Shown piece by piece: positions 52,248-62,851 of a stretch of DNA of 64,000 nt. Origin of the DNA: an uncultured delta proteobacterium (lineage in GTDB: Bacteria; Desulfobacterota; Desulfobacteria; Desulfobacterales; SG8-13); contig CAWKCK010000007.1 of assembly GCA_963848135.1 (NCBI GenBank), positions 68,121 through 132,120 of the forward strand, written 5' to 3'. A program made the translations under genes and the position numbers. Each line of letters opens with the position of its first letter. Position 1 is the stretch's first letter. The notes beneath the pieces are model-generated. The model saw only the letters and a list, made by a program, of their open reading frames with translations, searched no databases and was not told the DNA's origin.

Positions 52248-55200
52248 ATGCCTTCAAACAAAAGCGGCTCGGTTATGGTAGTGGGCGCCGGTATTGCCGG
52301 TATGCAAAGTGCCATCGATCTGGCTGAATCCGGTTATTACGTCTATCTGGTGGAAAAGTCTCCTGCCATCGGCGGGCTCATGTCCCAACTGGATAAGACG
52401 TTTCCAACAAATGACTGCGCCATGTGAGTGATCTCGCCCAAACTGGTCGAGGTCGGCCGGCATCTAAACATTGAACTGCTCACGAACACCGAACTTCTCG
52501 CCCTGGAAGGAAACCCGGGGGACTTCACCGCAAAACTGCGTGAAAATCCGCGTTTTGTCGATCTTGAAAAATGCACCAGCTGCGGCGATTGCACCAAGGT
52601 CTGCCCCATCGAAGTGCCCGATGAGTACAACAAGGGCCTGAACGCCCGCAAAGCCATTTTTAAAATGTATCCCCAGGCGATTCCCGGCGCTTATGGCATC
52701 ACCAAACGCAGCGTATCGCCCTGCAAAGCCACCTGCCCGGCTCACGTCAGCATCCAGGGCTACATCGCGCTGATCAACACCGGCCAGTACGCCGAAGCTC
52801 TCAAACTCTTTAGAGACGATCACCCCTTCCCCGCCGTCTGTGGACGGGTGTGTCACCATCCCTGTGAAGGTGAGTGCACCCGCGGCGAAGTTGACCAGCC
52901 GATTGCCATCCGCGAGCTGCATCGTTTTCTGGCTGATTGGGAAATGACCCAGCCGGAACCGGTGATTCCTGAAGTGGCTGAGGCGCGACCGGAAAAGATC
53001 GCCATTGTCGGCGCGGGACCGGCGGGCCTCACCACGGCCTATTATTTGGCCAAGGACGGCTACCAGGTGACGGTGTTCGAAAAACTGCCGGTGACCGGCG
53101 GCATGATGGCGGTAGGTATTCCTGAATACCGGCTGCCGCGCGATATTCTTGCCCACGAGATCGGGGTGATCGAAAAAATGGGGGTCACCATCAAAACCGG
53201 CGTTACCTTCGGCAAAGATATCACCCTGGATAGTCTCAAAGAAGACGGGTTCTTGGCGCTCTACCTGGCCATCGGGCTCCACGGCGGCCGTGCTTTGGGG
53301 GTTGATAATGAAAATGTCGAAGGTGTGCTTCAAGGGGTAGATTTTCTACGAGATGCCGCCTTGGGTAAAGAGGTTAAAATCGGCGAAGAGGTCCTCGTGA
53401 TCGGGGGCGGTAATGTGGCCATCGATGTCGCCCTGACCGCCAAACGCAAGGGGGCCCAAAAAGTCACCCTGGTCTGTCTGGAACGACGCGAAGAGATGCC
53501 GGCTTGGGAGCATGAAATCGAAGAGGCCCTTGAGAGCGAAATCGAGATCGTCAACAGTTTTGGACCCAAAGCCTTTTTCATCGACAAGAACAAGCGTTTC
53601 TCGGGGCTGGAGTTCAAAACCTGCACGGCCGTGTTCGACGATTCGGGCCGCTTTAACCCGGAATATGACGAGGCGCAATGCGAGGCCATGTTTGCCGACA
53701 CGGTTATCGTGGCCATCGGACAAAGCGCGCAACTGGCCGATCTTAAAACCCAGGGTATTGCTGTCACCCCACCTGGCGGTCTCGAAGCCGACCCAGTGAC
53801 CTTCCAGACACCCATCGAGTGGGTGTTCGCCGGGGGTGATGCCTACCACGGCCCCAAATCGGTGGTAGAAGCTGTCGGCACCGGCAAAGAAGCCGCCGAG
53901 AGCATTCACCGGTACCTGAATGGCATGGACCTGCGCGAAGGCCGCGAAAAAACCTATGAGTTTGAAAAACCGGACATAACCGGTGAAAACCAGAAACCCC
54001 GCGTGCCGGTGCGCTGTCTCGATCCGGAGGCCCGGGAGTGCAATTTCCTGGAAGTGTCCTTCGGATATGAAGAATCGGAGGCCAAGACCGAAGCAGAGCG
54101 CTGCCTGCGCTGCGGTATCTGCTCCGAATGCTACCAGTGCGTCACGGCCTGTCTGGCCGGTGCCGTCGATCACGACCAGCAGCCGATCGAAAGAGATCTA
54201 CGGATCGGTTCCGTGATTTTGTCCACCGGCAGCGAACCCTACGACCCGGGCGCCCTGGCCGAATTCTACCAGTACAAAATCAACCCCAATGTGATGACCA
54301 GCCTGGAGTTCGAACGGATTCTCAGCGCATCGGGTCCCACCATGGGCCACCTGGTAAGGCCGACAGACGAAAAGGAACCGCAAAAGATCGCCTGGCTGCA
54401 GTGTGTCGGCTCCCGCGACACTAACCGCTGCGGCAATGGGTACTGTTCGTCGGTCTGCTGTATGTACGCCATCAAGGATGCCATGATCGCCAAAGAACAC
54501 GCTAAGGGCGACCTGGACTGCACCATATTCAACATGGACATCCGCACCTTTGGCAAGGACTACGAAAAATACTACCTGCGCGCCAAAGACCAGGAAGGTG
54601 TGAAGTTTAACAAGGCCAGAATCCACACCATCACTAACGCTGCCGAAAATGACGATCTGATCGTCAAATATGCCGATGACAGCGGTCAGATGCAGGAAGA
54701 AATCTTCAATATGGTGGTTCTCTCGGTGGGCCTGCAGGTCCCGGAAAGCTCGGGTGAACTGGCCGAACGACTGGGGGTAACCCTTGACAAATACCGCTTC
54801 ACAGCTTCCGATCCTTTTGCCCCGGTGGAAACGTCACGTGCGGGGGTATATGCCTGCGGTGTCTTTCAGGGCCCCAAAGACATCCCCGAATCGGTCACCC
54901 AGGCCAGCGCCGCTGCCGGTATCGCCGGAACAATTTTGGCCGAGGCTCGGAACACCGATACGAAGAAGCCCCAGATCCCCGATGAAAGAAATGTCACCGA
55001 AGAAGACTTGCGGGTCGGAGTGTTCGTGTGCAACTGCGGCATCAATATCGGCGGGATTGTAGACGTGCCGGCAGTAACAGAGTATGCCGCCGCACTGCCC
55101 GGCGTTGTGCACGCCGACGAGAGCCTGTTTACATGCAGCCAGGACAGCCAGGATAAAATCAAGGAGGTGATAGAAGAGAAACAGCTCAACCGGGTGGTTG

Positions 55201-56672
55201 TGGCCTCCTGCAGTCCCAAGACCCATGAGGCGATCTTTATGGACACCTTGGTGGCGGTCGGGTTGAACAAATACCTGTTCGAAATGGCCAACATCCGCAA
55301 CCAGAACTCCTGGGTCCATGCCAAAGACCCCGACGGTGCAACGAGCAAGGCCAAGGATCTCGTGCGTATGGCCGTTGGGCGGGTGACCACTCTAAAACCC
55401 CTGGCCGAAAGGACGATCCCGGTCAACAACCGCGCCCTGGTCATCGGCGGCGGCGTCGCCGGTATGAATTCGGCGCTCACCATCAGTCGCCAGGGTTATC
55501 CGGTGACGCTGGTTGAAAAGGAGGCCCTTCTGGGCGGTATGGCCCGTCGACTTCACCACACGATCGAAGGCGGAGACATCGAAGCCTACCTGAAAAAACT
55601 GAGCGGGGAAATCCAGGCCGACGAAAACATCGATGTCATCACCCACGGCATTGTCAGTGATTTTGCGGGCTATAAAGGCAACTTCAAAACCGAGGTTGAA
55701 GTGGGGCCGGATCGAAAAAAACGTGTGATCGATCACGGTGCGATTTTGGTTGCCACTGGCGCGGGAGAGTACCAACCTTCCGAGTATCTCTACGGGGAGG
55801 ATCCGCGCGTCGTCACGCAACTCGAACTCAGTGATCACCTGGAAGAAAAGGGTGCAGATGATCTGTCCACGGTCGTGATGATCCAGTGCGTCGGATCTCG
55901 CAGTGACGACTACATCGAATGTTCCCGCATCTGCTGCCAGAATGCGGTCAAAAATGCCTTGGCCGTCAAGCGGCTGAACCCCGATGCGCAGGTGTTCGTC
56001 CTCTACCGGGATATCCGCACTTACGGCTTGCTGGAAGATTTCTACACCGAGGCCCGCAAAATGGGGGTTATCTTCATTCGCTTCGACAAGGATAAACCGC
56101 CGGTAGCAACGGCTTCGGCCGCGGGGATTCTGGTGCGGGTCGAGGACCACGTCCTCAAACAGGAGATCGAGATCCAGACCGAACTTCTTGCCCTGAGCGC
56201 CGGCATGCGGGCGACCGACACATCCAACCTGGCAGGAATAATGAAACTGGGTCGCAACCCGGAAGGGTACTTCATCGAAGCCCACGTAAAACTGCGACCG
56301 GTTGACATGCCGTCCGAAGGAATGTTTCTGTGCGGCACGGCCCATGGGCCCAAACTGATCTCGGAGACCATCTCCCAGGCCCGGGCGGCCGCCTCGCGGG
56401 CAATCACCTTTCTGTCCAAACCGGAGATCAAACTGTCAGCCATCACCGCCCTGATCAACACCGACAGTTGCGTCAAATGTCTAACCTGCGTGCGTTCGTG
56501 TCCGTTTCAGGTGCCCAAATACGATGAAGACCAGCGCGAAATCGTCATCGACGAAGCCCTGTGCCAGGGCTGCGGCGTCTGCACCGCTGTTTGTCCGCGC
56601 CAGACGATTGGTCTGCGCAACTACGAAGACGATCAGCTCATGTGCAAGATCGACTGTCTGCTGGAAAATTGA
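52248..56672 (+). CDS. hdrA: HdrA-like flavo-Fe-S protein with GltD-type NAD(P)H module (HdrL type); selenocysteine at TGA 52425-52427
   Basis: GAGIAG...[12 protein letters not shown](TGA)VISPKL is in frame with the 1414-aa ORF. Contains ferredoxin motifs, [20 protein letters not shown], two CVGSR...CS.(V/I)CC motifs and a C-terminal 2x4Fe-4S. Hairpin GATCTCG/CGAGGTC follows the UGA. Confidence 0.93.
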
Positions 56673-56991
56673 CACATTAACCCGCATCTTAGCGCAACTG
56701 AGCGCTGATCTGTGACCAACAAATAGACACAGCCCAAAATGATTATCCTAAGCGGGTGGGGAATTTCCACCCGCTTTTATTTGGCACGAGCGACTTTTGG
56801 TCTTACTATCTGTTATTCAAATATAAATGGTCATTTACTTGCTGGGTACTGTTCTCAGCAATTTTCCGGTGGTATCGCTGGTTCAGAGCGCTTTGCCCGG
56901 CTAAAAGAATTTCAATATGAATAGGGCGTTCCAAAAACCATTCGCGTATGGGCTTAATAGGACCATAATCGAAAATGAAAAGGATGAGTAA

Positions 56992-57405
56992 ATGAGACAT
57001 ATAACATCAAGATTGTTTATCGCTTTTGTTGTGGTGTTCGTCGTTAGCGGCTGCGCCTCTTCGCCGTTTGCCGACGATGCGGTTTCGCGGATGAGCAAGG
57101 AAGAACTCAAGCAGCGGTTGGGTGCACCGGATCTGATCATCCTGGACACCCGGACGGGCAGCGATTGGAATGACAGTAATCAGATTATACTCGGAGCGGT
57201 GCGCGCCGAACCCAAGGAATTCAGCAAGTGGGCGGAAGCCTATCCCAAGGACGCCACCATCGTATTGTACTGAGCGTGACATGACGAATACACCAGTGCC
57301 AGGATGGCACGGCAACTTATCGGCAGAGGATACACCAAAGTGTACGCACTCAAAGGCGGCTGGATCGAATGGCAGGGTGCCAACTATCCAATGGAGAAGA
57401 AATGA
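56992..57405 (+). CDS. Rhodanese-domain lipoprotein with two in-frame TGA codons (U-A-U), a putative double selenoprotein
   Basis: Lipobox VSGC; ILDTR; IVLY-TGA-GCG-TGA-HDEYTSARMARQLIGRGYTKVYALKGGWIEW...KK*; hairpin GTGCC-AGGAT-GGCAC at 57296-57310. Confidence 0.85.
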
Positions 57406-57466: not shown

Positions 57467-58321
57467 CTATAGGCTGCCGATTACCCTTTTTAATCTATCC
57501 GGGTTGAATTTTCGCGATACAAGCGGTCTATCAGAAAGAGCGGCAATTTGATCCGTAAAATTCGGCATTTCTTTCTGAAAAAATATTCCGATGGGTATCT
57601 TGCTTTCATCCCGGGTGGCCATCATCAAGGCTTTCTCATAATCTTCCGGATCATGCTGACTGTCGTCAAGAGGATTGACGCGCTGCTTGTACCATTGGTA
57701 AATATCCTTGGGGTTAAATGAAACACAGGGCTGAAGTATATCAATGATACTAAACCCCTTGTGTTGAATGCCCGCCTGGATCAATTCACTCAGATGTTGG
57801 CCGTTTCCCGAAAAACCTCGGGCGACAAAACTTGCCCCTAAAGAAAGGGCCAATAGTATCGGCTTCAGAGGGGTAGTTATCACACCCTTTTGCTGCATCT
57901 TGGTCACCATACCGATTTGAGCGGTTGGTGATGCCTGCCCCCTCGTCAATCCGTAAACCGTATTGTTATGAACCAGTACGGTAAGATCGATATTCCGTCT
58001 GATGGCATGCAGTAAATGATTACCCCCTTCTGCATAACAATCCCCATCGCCGGTGTTAACTACTATGGTTAACTCATGATTGGCGATTTTGGCACCTGTG
58101 GCCAATGGCAGCGCGCGTCCGTGAAGAGAATGAAAAAAATTACACTTCAAAAAATGGGGGGTTTTTGCCGCTTGTCCGATTCCTGAGACAACTAAAATTT
58201 GATGCGGTAAAATTTTTAGTTGAACCAGCGCTTCCTGCATGGCTTTCAGGATGCCGAAATTTCCACAACCGGGGCACCACTGGTTGTCATAATCGGATTC
58301 GAAGTCCTTGATACTGACCAT
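57467..58321 (-). CDS. 2-oxoacid:ferredoxin oxidoreductase beta subunit (TPP-binding)
   Basis: WCPGCGNFG, SGIGQ, HGRALPLATG, GDGD, NNTVYGLTRGQASPT and QPCVSFN motifs. Confidence 0.95.
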   Translation of the reverse strand: MVSIKDFESDYDNQWCPGCGNFGILKAMQEALVQLKILPHQILVVSGIGQAAKTPHFLKCNFFHSLHGRALPLATGAKIANHELTIVVNTGDGDCYAEGGNHLLHAIRRNIDLTVLVHNNTVYGLTRGQASPTAQIGMVTKMQQKGVITTPLKPILLALSLGASFVARGFSGNGQHLSELIQAGIQHKGFSIIDILQPCVSFNPKDIYQWYKQRVNPLDDSQHDPEDYEKALMMATRDESKIPIGIFFQKEMPNFTDQIAALSDRPLVSRKFNPDRLKRVIGSL

Positions 58322-60028
58322 GGGTTCACCTCAAATGCTCGCTGAATGTCCTTTGCAATTTCGATCGGGAAAAACGGTCGCCCATCATATTTTAAAATGG
58401 CTCCGGCGGCACGAAGACCTGTTTGCATCTGAATGATCTGCCCTAACTGCGCGCCACTATTTTGCTCTACCATGAAAAAAGACCGTGCCTTTTGAAGCGC
58501 TTCGGTGGCGAGTTGGATAGGAAAGGGCCACAGATCGCCAAAGATTACCGCTCCTACGTCAATCCCATCAGATCTTAGGATGTCAACTGCTTCTTGAATG
58601 GCGCCTTGCGTCGATCCCCAACCAACCAGAAGAACGTCGCTATCGCCGAAATAAACTTCGGGAGCCTGCATTTCATCGAGCATATCCTTTAAGCTTGGCA
58701 TTGCGCTTATCAACCATTTTTATCCGTTCAGTGCTGTCTTCGGTAATGTGACCGTCTTCAGAGTGCTCATCGCTACAAACCATGACCAGTGCTTTTCCGC
58801 GACAAGGCAGTGCGCGGGGCGACACGCCTGACTTTGTCACTTTAAAGCGTCTGTAATTGGATGGATTTTCCAAATCTTCATCGGCCGCATAAAACAATTT
58901 TACAGTCGAAGGTATGTCAAAAGACTGTTCCGTGGTGAACCATGAGTCGCAAAGCAATTGGTCAGCCAGGATGATAGCAGGCACCTGATATTTATCCGCG
59001 AGATGAAACGCACGGGCAGTGGTAGCATATGCATCGTGGACGTTTCGTGGAGCAAACACAAAACGAGGAAATTCATCTTGCGAAGCGTGGATAACAAATA
59101 GTAAATCCGCCTGTGCTGTTCTCGTTGGCAAGCCGGTGGCGGGACCCGGGCGTTGCGCGTTAATGATGACAATGGGAGTTTCGGTAATTGCAGCGAGTCC
59201 CAATGCTTCGGTCATCAGACAAAAACCACCCCCGGATGTGGCGGTCATGGCTCTTACCCCTGCGAAGGCTGCACCGATCGCCATGTTTATCGCAGCGATC
59301 TCATCCTCGGCTTGCTCGACCACCAGGGGTAAATGGTCCATCTGTTCAACGAGATGGCCCATAATACCGGTGGCCGGGCTCATGGGGTAAAAAGCCCCGA
59401 AACGACAATCTGCTGACAAAGCCCCCAAGGCGATGGCCTCGGAGCCTTCAAACAGTCTTCCTTTGGATTTGCCGGAGACGCTTTTAAAAACATCTTCATA
59501 GGCCGCCGTTTTGACGAACTGATAACCTAGCCGGGCCGCTTTCAGATTCATATTTAAAATTGCTTTAGATTTGGCGGCAAAGCGCTGCGTGAGGACCTCG
59601 TCAATGAGTTGCTTCGGCGCTCCCAGCAGTGCCAGGCATACACCTGCCGCCACGGTGTTTGACGTAATCTTTCCGCCGGCATCCTGAGCGAGCTTCTCAA
59701 AGGGTACGCCCTTCAATTTGTCATCCGTAATATTGGCGTCCTCTTCGATGAGGATAATGCCGCTCGATACGACTTCATTTTTGTGAAGCGTGTATGTATT
59801 TTGATCCAAGGCAACCAGTATGTCGATCGCATGATGCGGCGCATGAACAGGTTGATTGCTGATTCGAATTTGAATGAAGCTGTGACCGCCGCGAATGCGA
59901 GATTCAAAATCATTGATGGCCATGACGTAAAGACCGGCTCGCTGGCAAACCCAAGACAAAAGACTGCCAACCGTTTGAATACCTTGACCAGCCTCTCCGC
60001 CGATTTTAATCGTTATATCAAATGCCAT
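58246..60028 (-). CDS. 2-oxoacid:acceptor oxidoreductase alpha subunit (gamma-alpha fusion); one +1 frameshift (~58689)
   Basis: GGEAGQGI, SRIRGGHS, YPMSPAT, QAEDEIAA, TSGGGF, RPGPATGLPT and DEH, then GWGSTQG and KYDGRPF in the next frame. The 3' end is uncertain because of the overlap with beta. Confidence 0.92.
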
Positions 60029-60721: not shown

Positions 60722-61279
60722 TTACAGTTTTTGACCGCCAATCCCTGAATACACCGCCTTGCATATTCCCGATACGCCCCCTTTCACGCCTTCTGGATTC
60801 TTGAAGCCTTCAGTTGACAGAAGACTTTCCATGTATGCCTTAGACGGGGCTAAAGACGTATATGCCTTGTCGACATCATTCCGGGTTTTTATCAGAAAGA
60901 GCCATCCCCGTTCATATGGATCATCGCTTATTAGTGACAACCCTTTCCGAAGGCCGTTGTTGTATTGGATGGTTCCTCCAACGGGTGGATCAATATACAA
61001 AATTTTTCACGTGATGGCAAAGACCACCGAGTCACCGGATTCGATGACGGCACCATTATCGGCTAGCTCGTCTAAGTCCTTGATCCTGCACATGAGAACC
61101 AGCGCGGGTTGGGTGAATCCGAAAACAATATCTTTGTCGTTTCTCTTGGCCCAGAGTCCCTGCTTCACGTGGTAGCGCAGGTCTATTAATTCAAGACGCT
61201 TTGGGCTTGATGCGGCTTTTCCGATCCGTGAGATTTGTTCATAAATGGCGTCTTTGAATTGTCTGTTTGGATTCTTCAT
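60722..61279 (-). CDS. Chimeric ORF: ArsR-type N-terminus fused to a GcvH/lipoyl-domain-like protein, with in-frame TGA at 61007-61009
   Basis: MKNPNRQFKDAIYEQISRIGKAASSPKRLELIDL (ArsR/SmtB start) | RYHVKQGLW...FAIT*KILYIDPPVGG...DDPYERGWLFLIK (GcvH fold). The two ORFs are in the same frame. Confidence 0.7.
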
Positions 61280-61470
61280 GTCCACCTCTCAAGTAATCAA
61301 TTAACCTATTGAATACTTACTCCAAACCACCATAAGCGTCAAGCGTGTTTCGATATGCTGTTATTCGGACGGGAAAACCGGAGCTTCACATTTGTACTTG
61401 CGATCGCTGTGTTAATGCGTTAACTTTCTGAACACTAAAAGCGTAAACTATTTGAACAGAAAGGCCGCCA

Positions 61471-62851
61471 ATGGACAGGCAGAACTTGAATCAATACTGG
61501 AAAACCGTTGTCGACACGATTCAGGACGGCGTGATGATCGTAAACCCAGAAGGCACAATAATTTCGGTCAATCGAGGATTCGAAGAAATTACCGGTTACG
61601 GACGCGATGAGGTTCTCGGCCAACCGTGCACGATCCTAAATTGCAGTTCCTGTGAGATCGCCCGTGAAAAAAACGGCTGTCATTGGTGTGTGATGTTTGA
61701 ACGCGGGAATCTGAAAAAGCAAAAGTGCCTGCTCATTCATAAAAGCGGTCGTTCGGTTCACGTCGTAAAAAATGCATCGGTCCTAAAAGATGAAAACGGT
61801 GAGGTAACCGGTGCCGTTGAGACCATGACCGATATCACCGACCTGATCGACAAGGAAACGCAACTCGAATTTTATCGCCGAGAACTTTCGGCTGAAGACA
61901 AATTTTACGGCATCATCGGCATGTCCGCACAAATGCAGCAACTGTTCGAACTGATAACCAATACCGCTCAAAGCGATGCACCGGTAATCATTTTCGGTGA
62001 AAGCGGCACCGGTAAAGAGCTAGTGGCGCAGGCTATCCACGAAGCAGGGCATCGCAGCCATAAACCATTCGTCAAGGTAAACTGTGCGGCTCTGAACGAA
62101 TCGCTCCTGGAAAGCGAGCTTTTCGGGCACGTTAAAGGTGCATTTACAGGTGCATATCGCAACCGAGAGGGTCGCTTCGAGGCTGCCAACGGCGGTGATA
62201 TTTTTCTTGATGAAATCGGTGACTTACCATTATCGACCCAGATCAAGCTGCTGCGCGTGATGGAAGACAAGATCGTTGAGCGTGTGGGTGACCAGAAGCC
62301 GATAAAAGTCAATGTGCGCACCATCTCTGCGACAAATCGAAACCTGTCGGACTTGATTCGCAAAGGTGAATTTCGCGAAGATTTTTATTACCGGATCAAC
62401 GTCATACCCATCCGCGTACCGGCGCTGAGAGAGCGTCAGCGATGATATACCGTTGTTGGCCAGATCTTTCTTCAACCGTCTTCGGCTCAAAAGCGGTAAA
62501 AATATCAGAGGGATATCCAACGCCACCTTGGATGTTATGCTGCGATATAAATGGCCCGGCAATGTCAGAGAACTCAAAAGCGCCCTCGAATTCGCTTTTG
62601 TTTCTTGCCAGAACGCCAACATAAACCCGGAACATTTGCCCTTTAAACTGACCGGCATCGACATTCCTCAGGATCAGGAGTTGCTCGCCGATAATTTGGC
62701 CGACATAAAAAAACAGCGTCTTATTGCGGCATTGCGCTCAACCGCTGGCAATCAGTCCAAATCGGCCAGGATATTACGCATGTCCCGCACCAGCGTCTGG
62801 AAACAAATGAAACAGTTCAATCTAAAACCAGAAGACTTTAAAACCGTCTAA
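61471..62851 (+). CDS. PAS-domain sigma-54-dependent activator; one +1 frameshift (~62439)
   Basis: PAS with C-x4-C-x3-C...C-x2-C, GESGTGKE, GAFTGA, FREDFYYRI, then WPGNVREL and HTH (NQSKSARILRMSRTSVW) in the next frame. Confidence 0.9.

Follow-up and report, generated by a model that had tools for sequence, protein, structure and literature searches.

Small single-domain rhodaneses such as GlpE and PspE of Escherichia coli and Sud of Wolinella succinogenes share one fold and a six-residue active-site loop that starts with the nucleophile, and PspE and Sud are periplasmic, as is predicted for the protein described here. These enzymes rely on one catalytic Cys and have no partner residue at position −2, whereas the protein encoded in the window (the whole 64,000-nt stretch of DNA that was analyzed) is predicted to have a Sec nucleophile and a further Sec at −2. 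Redox or active-site motifs that contain two Sec residues close together are also found in TsoB and in SelL, a eukaryotic protein whose SECIS lies in the 3' untranslated region; both differ from the window protein in architecture and motif spacing. TsoB, which is listed with two Sec residues (PMC13188914), also has a rhodanese domain (weak match, 31.5 bits), and the window protein falls far below the TsoB cutoff of 805 bits.

The closest described family is NCBIfam NF041203 (“rhodanese_LYCAU, rhodanese-related (seleno)protein”), also described as the CxU form of rhodanese-related sulfurtransferase. Its members and the window protein have in common an exported single rhodanese domain, the signature ...LY-x-A-U-xxxx-TSA...VYALKGGW..W, the catalytic Sec, and a SECIS at an equal distance from that Sec. 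The window protein differs in having Sec (TGA) at position 94, where the family has its eponymous Cys, and in belonging to a clade of lipoproteins with a lipobox rather than to the signal-peptidase-I secreted form; further, a lower SECIS stem longer by 2 bp is present in all UxU sequences. The family is listed among computationally predicted selenoproteins (PMC9312934), and in the literature searched we found neither experimental work on any family member nor protein-level evidence of Sec decoding at either UGA.

A first reading of the locus, made from its sequence alone, had put forward a U-x-U active-site motif. The motif is present, but the idea is not new: a UxU form of rhodanese-related sulfurtransferase was reported from the Olavius algarvensis delta-symbiont metagenome (Zhang and Gladyshev 2007, PMC1976440, Fig. 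3A). That form belongs to the same family, with a second Sec beside the first giving U-x-U, and likewise comes from marine sediment-type Deltaproteobacteria rich in selenoproteins. The treatment there consists of one sentence and the alignment, in which the shared SECIS, selection, and distribution are not analyzed. The motif has been known since 2007, and the present analysis leaves current concepts unchanged; what it adds is that UxU proteins form a widespread, conserved lipoprotein clade, that their genes share the single SECIS of the family, a structure proven by comparison, that selection downstream of the UGAs is quantified, and that a Cys-Cys counterpart is found.

Reading frame, protein family, and export signal

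All coordinates are positions within the window, and the rhodanese gene lies on its + strand (Table 1). The frame starting at ATG 56992 reads MRHITSRLFIAFVVVFVVSGC...KDATIVLY, followed by TGA-GCG-TGA; after the second UGA it continues as HDEYTSARMARQLIGRGYTKVYALKGGWIEWQGANYPMEKK and terminates with TGA at 57403-57405, intact across both UGAs and free of indels. As the sequence-only reading had pointed out, the ORF list ends this frame at 57273 with a 93-aa product, and yet the frame goes on into a rhodanese C terminus: the post-UGA peptides include QLIGR, GYTKVYALK, and GGWIEWQGANYPMEK, and the Pfam Rhodanese match spans both UGAs. All features named in the sequence-only reading lie where it placed them. 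We regard this as a real, confirmed gene for a small exported rhodanese-type enzyme with two UGA codons in the active site.

TABLE 1 Positions of the rhodanese selenoprotein gene, its codons of interest, and its SECIS element in the window
Feature	Position	Strand	Remarks
Shine-Dalgarno-like AAGGA	56980..56984	+	7 nt 5' of ATG; direct sequence reading
Rhodanese selenoprotein precursor CDS, 137 residues	56992..57405	+	Two in-frame UGAs; terminal TGA included
Predicted lipoprotein signal peptide, residues 1-21	56992..57054	+	n-region R2/R7, lipobox V-S-G-C; pattern-based
UGA1, residue 94	57271..57273	+	Cys (TGC/TGT) in 79 CxU relatives, TGA in 14 UxU genes
UGA2, residue 96	57277..57279	+	Near-invariant family Sec; aligns with rhodanese catalytic Cys
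Post-UGA coding part	57280..57402	+	Active-site loop HDEY-TS, helix, VYALKGGW..W motif
SECIS hairpin	57293..57312	+	CC-A-GUGCCA-GGA-UGGCAC-GG
SECIS core stem, 5 bp	57296-57300 / 57306-57310	+	Paired in 405/405 cells, 81 distinct sequences
SECIS loop	57301-57305	+	AGGAU; A-U closes GGA triloop
SECIS lower 2-bp extension	CC 57293-4 / GG 57311-2	+	Bulged A 57295

The proposed rhodanese identity was borne out at the level of both family and fold. With U read as C for the domain searches, the product matches NF041203 at 173 bits (cutoff, 115) over profile positions 3 to 126 of 126 and Pfam Rhodanese (PF00581) over residues 36 to 129 (E value, 3.9e-14). An AF2 model built with 42 family sequences (pLDDT, 86; pTM, 0.81) resembles single-domain rhodaneses in Foldseek comparisons, with TM scores of 0.70 to 0.77, including E. 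coli GlpE (1gmx; TM, 0.70); it places a central strand at residues 89 to 93, a loop at 94 to 99, and a helix at 100 to 111. The L-Y-C-A-U motif of NF041203 appears here as L-Y-U-A-U, with the catalytic Sec kept and the Cys at −2 replaced by a second Sec, and is thus a conservative Cys-to-Sec variant of the family motif and not a loss.

A lipobox has the form [LVI][ASTVI][GAS]C after a positively charged n-region and a hydrophobic core, with the Cys at positions 15 to 35 (PROSITE PS51257). In the window protein, the core is LFIAFVVVFVV and the lipobox VSGC occupies residues 18 to 21, with the Cys21 codon at 57052-57054; the lipobox anticipated from the sequence is conserved across the clade, a [SNG]-G-C form being present in 21 of 21 clade clusters. 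Our calls of export signals in the rhodanese family are pattern based, and relatives show either signal-peptidase-I or lipoprotein signals. These features mark the rhodanese as a predicted lipoprotein precursor exported from the cytoplasm.

Cys and Sec at positions 94 and 96 in relatives

A search of 5.8 billion proteins gave 78 matches. In 21 protein clusters (60 to 100% identity, all of 93 aa, and all with a lipobox), the sequence breaks off at the first UGA with ...IV[LF]Y; another 54 clusters break off at the second, with ...LYCA. Only three of the 78 matches are full length, namely, P0016 and two “C-x-W” proteins (P0019 and P0021). The databases hold the window gene only as a 93-residue “hypothetical protein,” and truncation at UGA1 affects at least 21 clusters, with another 54 cut short at UGA2; when annotated correctly, these entries represent an exported selenoenzyme that is widespread in anaerobic sediments.

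At the DNA level, 93 family genes comprise 79 CxU genes (CAU, CSU, CTU, CDU, and CNU) and 14 UxU genes. P0016, encoded at locus L100, reads LYCACHDEYTSAR, with a genuine TGT codon at each of the two sites. The expectation that relatives would have C-x-C or C-x-U was therefore correct, and every homologue checked has only Cys or Sec at each site; Trp at the second site, considered as a refutation, was rejected once P0019 proved on checking to be a gene call made with TGA read as W, and P0021 is assumed to be another. At both UGA positions, then, relatives have Cys or Sec. The 12 other clade loci read (60 to 97% identity) and the window all keep TGA-GCG-TGA together with the hairpin described below, and this conservation, along with the recurrent stop at the first UGA, is far beyond chance. 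A scan of genome contigs gave a single true relative, L014, besides an unrelated rhodanese, L015, and a metagenome scan gave 550 or more relatives.

Sec at position 94 was never seen without Sec at position 96, the combination of Sec at the first position and Cys at the second occurring in 0 of the 93 family genes tabulated. This pattern fits a route in which the change from TGY to TGA at codon 94 was tolerated only because a working SECIS was already in range. The lipoprotein U-A-U clade that includes the window is monophyletic (support, 100/96; 10 distinct rows in the tree). UxU genes also occur outside it, at L039 (UAU) and L093 (USU), both with ordinary signal peptides and no lipobox. Independent origins of UxU were considered for these two loci, but a common origin for every UxU form survives an AU test (P = 0.10), and we accordingly make no claim of convergence.

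Three loci of the family deserve mention. The gene at positions 213 to 620 of L100 is the sole Cys-x-Cys homologue (LYCACHDEYTSARVG); it has the HDEY loop of the U-A-U clade and neither a hairpin nor a lipobox. The genome to which the window belongs encodes, on another contig, an ordinary CAU paralogue (C18:669929-670312, + strand) that is 49% identical, with a nonlipoprotein signal peptide and the SECIS hairpin of the family (GUGCC-UGGAU-GGCAU). On one metagenomic contig (L085, ~2271-2840), C-S-U and C-D-U family genes stand in tandem, the C-D-U gene on a very long branch.

One SECIS hairpin downstream of two UGA codons

The sequence-only reading had assigned a single downstream hairpin to the two UGAs, and this hairpin (Table 1) is the only conserved structure that we found: among the aligned family sequences, there is no second conserved structure that could serve the UGAs. 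The hairpin is separated from UGA2 by 16 nt and from UGA1 by 22 nt, and on its own it folds at −9.1 kcal/mol. When 81 distinct family sequences (9 UxU and 72 CxU) are aligned, which requires no gaps, the stem has nine double-sided changes (UA to CG in eight rows and GC to CG in one) with no pair broken, and all one-sided changes yield G-U pairs; when the pairing partners were slid by 1 to 3 columns as a control, pairing fell to 20 to 64%. The G at loop position 2 is invariant in the 81 sequences. Within the U-A-U clade, synonymous diversity is 0.000 over the hairpin codons 101 to 107 (45 pairs), compared with 0.45 to 0.61 in the flanks, and in the Cys-Cys homologue the hairpin has been lost. 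The stability of the 81-nt region around the hairpin is no better than that of shuffled sequences (z = −0.61); the single-sequence energy test misses so short a hairpin, which the comparative test detects. Nucleotide conservation of the SECIS segment is strong enough for contigs of unrelated C-A-U members from other organisms to align to the window over the 32 nt at 57289-57320 only.

Published criteria for bacterial SECIS (bSECIS) elements specify a loop of 3 to 9 nt, a stem of at least 4 bp, a G in the first two loop positions, a spacing of 16 to 37 nt, and a minimum free energy of −7.5 kcal/mol or lower (PMC13188914). The suggested SECIS prediction gave values inside these bounds for both UGAs: the spacing is 21 nt for UGA2 and 27 nt for UGA1, the energy is that given above, and the element can be read either as a 6-bp stem with a GGA loop or as a 5-bp stem with an AGGAU loop. 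The CC/GG lower stem is present in 9 of 9 distinct UxU sequences and in 9 of 72 CxU sequences (Fisher test, 2e-7, uncorrected for phylogeny and effectively representing up to three lineages), and we treat its association with UxU only as a lead.

Taken together with the selection and the Sec machinery described below, the evidence indicates that both UGAs very probably encode Sec in a full-length exported rhodanese. The alternative with the best standing is that only the ancestral UGA2 is efficiently decoded as Sec and that UGA1 is a leaky or regulatory stop at which mostly a 93-residue fragment is released, a few ribosomes passing by means of Sec or a near-cognate (Trp or Cys) tRNA, so that selenium supply or SelB occupancy would set the yield of full-length protein. 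UGA-to-hairpin spacing is fairly strict in E. coli fdhF. In the 79 CxU relatives, the UGA is 6 nt closer to the hairpin than UGA1 is, and of the UGA-to-loop-G distances measured for selenoprotein genes of the genome, that of UGA1 (32 nt) is the greatest, compared with 26 nt for the family UGA2 and ~21 to 22 nt for selD, whose loop is GGUC. Because two UGAs 6 nt apart cannot share one optimum, decoding may be inefficient at one site, probably UGA1, so that part of the product would be the 93-aa form. However, TGA94 is fixed throughout the clade even though identity there has otherwise dropped to 60% and synonymous sites are saturated, and it recurs in the nonlipoprotein genes L039 and L093. A mere attenuator could equally be TAA or TAG and need not sit on a conserved Cys codon; moreover, both UGAs lie within the bSECIS spacing range, and the longer lower stem goes with UxU. 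We therefore consider a leaky UGA1 improbable and retain the reading in which both codons specify Sec.

Selection and authenticity of the UGA codons

In the U-A-U clade, pN/pS is 0.217 for codons 97 to 137, compared with 0.235 for codons 22 to 93, and synonymous sites are near saturation. There is thus purifying selection on both sides of the UGAs, and since a stop at codon 94 would not preserve such a pN/pS downstream, the codons after the UGAs are probably translated. Contigs from three independent sediment studies have zero differences across 57271-57279. In addition, metatranscriptome contigs of clade relatives with 90 to 95% identity cross both UGAs, their flanks heavily substituted and 57265-57317 unchanged. 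Reads with TGC or TGT had been named as a result that would count against the two UGAs; both codons are instead unchanged in independent DNA assemblies and metatranscriptome contigs alike, which indicates that the relatives are transcribed and that the TGAs are not artifacts of assembly and are not removed by editing.

These data bear directly on the view that the gene is a decaying pseudogene or that its TGAs are assembly or sequencing errors for TGC or TGT. Two neighbors lend that view some color, as the alpha subunit gene of a nearby 2-oxoacid:ferredoxin oxidoreductase (POR; at ~58688-58692) and possibly a sigma-54 activator gene look frameshifted, which means that the assembly has some indel problems or that real pseudogenes are present. 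The rhodanese frame itself is intact, with no indels, its post-UGA part is under purifying selection, and the same TGA GCG TGA recurs in metatranscriptomes as well as in assemblies made independently by several studies, so that this reading is effectively refuted.

Selenocysteine machinery and UGA as a stop codon

The organism proved to be equipped for Sec: its 6.03-Mb genome encodes tRNA-Sec (76.5 bits; cutoff, 47), the sole tRNA with anticodon UCA, together with selA (622 bits), selB (374 bits), and selD (372 bits), all above the curated cutoffs, and selD itself has an in-frame TGA. UGA is also used as an ordinary stop: the rhodanese gene terminates in TGA at the same codon where orthologues have TAA, and TGA is the terminator of 55 of 88 family genes. 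Recoding of UGA as a standard sense codon (Trp or Gly) with no Sec involved, a reading that some pipelines adopted in translating relatives with TGA as W (P0019), can accordingly be dismissed, given these terminators, the lack of any UCA-anticodon tRNA other than tRNA-Sec beside a full selA/selB/selD set, and the placement of the UGAs exactly on Cys positions with a conserved hairpin downstream.

A second selB-like gene is present elsewhere in the genome (C15:43659-45516, − strand), in which two adjacent pieces matching SelB-model positions 13 to 105 and 106 to 580 lie in different frames; at 202 and 124 bits they are below the cutoff, and the gene is either a frameshifted SelB paralogue or the product of an assembly error.

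Active site and proposed mechanism

Both UGAs had been placed in the catalytic loop on first reading; the catalytic position is that of the second. In HMMER alignments, U96 falls without gaps on the Cys that opens the loop C-G-G-G-F-R-S in each of the two domains of the rhodanese structure PDB 6mxv, and a count from the conserved GG puts GlpE Cys65 in the same register. The catalytic loop here is U-H-D-E-Y-T, followed by S. From the 6mxv and GlpE register and the strand-loop-helix boundaries of the model, we infer that U96 is probably the catalytic nucleophile of a canonical six-residue loop. U94, encoded by the first UGA, lies two residues before U96, at the end of the central strand, where it replaces the conserved Cys of the family.

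For the synthesis of such a protein, SelB carrying Sec-tRNASec would dock on the one hairpin twice in succession, and Sec would be inserted at codon 94 and, after a single Ala codon, again at codon 96. The precursor would then be exported unfolded via the Sec translocon and lipidated on Cys21. In the mature enzyme, U96 would act as the nucleophile and U94 as its partner in place of the conserved Cys, and this replacement would turn the C-x-U selenenylsulfide pair of the family into a U-x-U diselenide pair; U94 and U96 may form a diselenide, or U96 may carry an intermediate of the perselenide type, and the diselenide chemistry remains putative. Rhodaneses transfer sulfane sulfur by way of a persulfide, which here would be a perselenosulfide. 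The enzyme would most likely handle sulfane sulfur (polysulfide or thiosulfate) or selenium in the periplasm, or have a redox role, in a Desulfobacterota-type anaerobe of sulfidic marine sediment.

More tentatively, and with rather less confidence than we place in the decoding of both codons, we suggest that one SECIS naturally programs two SelB-dependent insertions 6 nt apart, that the stem extension widens its range, and that the product is an extracytoplasmic low-potential diselenide. If this suggestion is right, the 2-bp lower-stem extension seen in all UxU genes (up to three lineages) would be an adaptation that widens the working range of the hairpin, the very low redox potential of U-x-U would suit a sulfide-rich periplasm, and the clade would provide a rare example of an exported diselenide enzyme as well as a natural system in which to study how much spacing a SECIS tolerates. 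Since the hairpin accompanies a single UGA in 79 relatives and a pair of UGAs in 14, the family can show how much spacing freedom the SECIS and SelB have, and such freedom in bacteria bears on the engineering of multi-selenocysteine proteins. Further, a single scaffold here allows comparison of disulfide (CxC, L100), selenenylsulfide (CxU), and diselenide (UxU) pairs.

Gene neighborhood

Genes for HEAT-repeat and Rce1-like proteins upstream of the rhodanese recur in the clade. A Sec-HdrL-like gene and the POR genes adjoin the rhodanese in the window's own lineage only, and in the clade neighborhoods compared there are no conserved partner genes that indicate a pathway. A selenium/sulfur relay suggested by synteny (Sec-HdrL, POR, and a GcvH-like gene) was considered and rejected, as L009, L012, and L098 have no HdrL beside the rhodanese.

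Several other genes in the window have interrupted frames. At 52248-56672 (+ strand), 60-codon and 1414-codon ORFs make up one HdrA/GltD-like flavo-iron-sulfur protein of ~1474 aa with Pfam matches to Pyr_redox_2, Fer4_20, and FAD_oxidored. Its in-frame UGA (52425-52427) lies in the motif CAM-U-VISPK and is followed from 3 nt downstream by a strong hairpin (−16 kcal/mol in a 63-nt fold); the same split (59 plus 1414 aa) is found in L010 and L011. On the − strand, an ORF at 60722-61285 has one in-frame UGA (...VVFAIT-U-KILYIDPP...) with a weak downstream hairpin (−7.6 kcal/mol in a simple fold).

The POR alpha subunit gene (58246-60028, − strand) is spread over two frames with a break at ~58688-58692, and in L010 an orthologue with 99.6% identity is a single protein of 566 aa, so that either an assembly indel or a real frameshift is at hand. 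Finally, at 61471-62851 (+ strand), a PAS/sigma-54 activator ORF of 324 aa is followed by a 132-aa ORF in another frame, and at L009, L010, and L098 the orthologue next to the rhodanese gene has a length of 459 aa, which may point to a second assembly indel.
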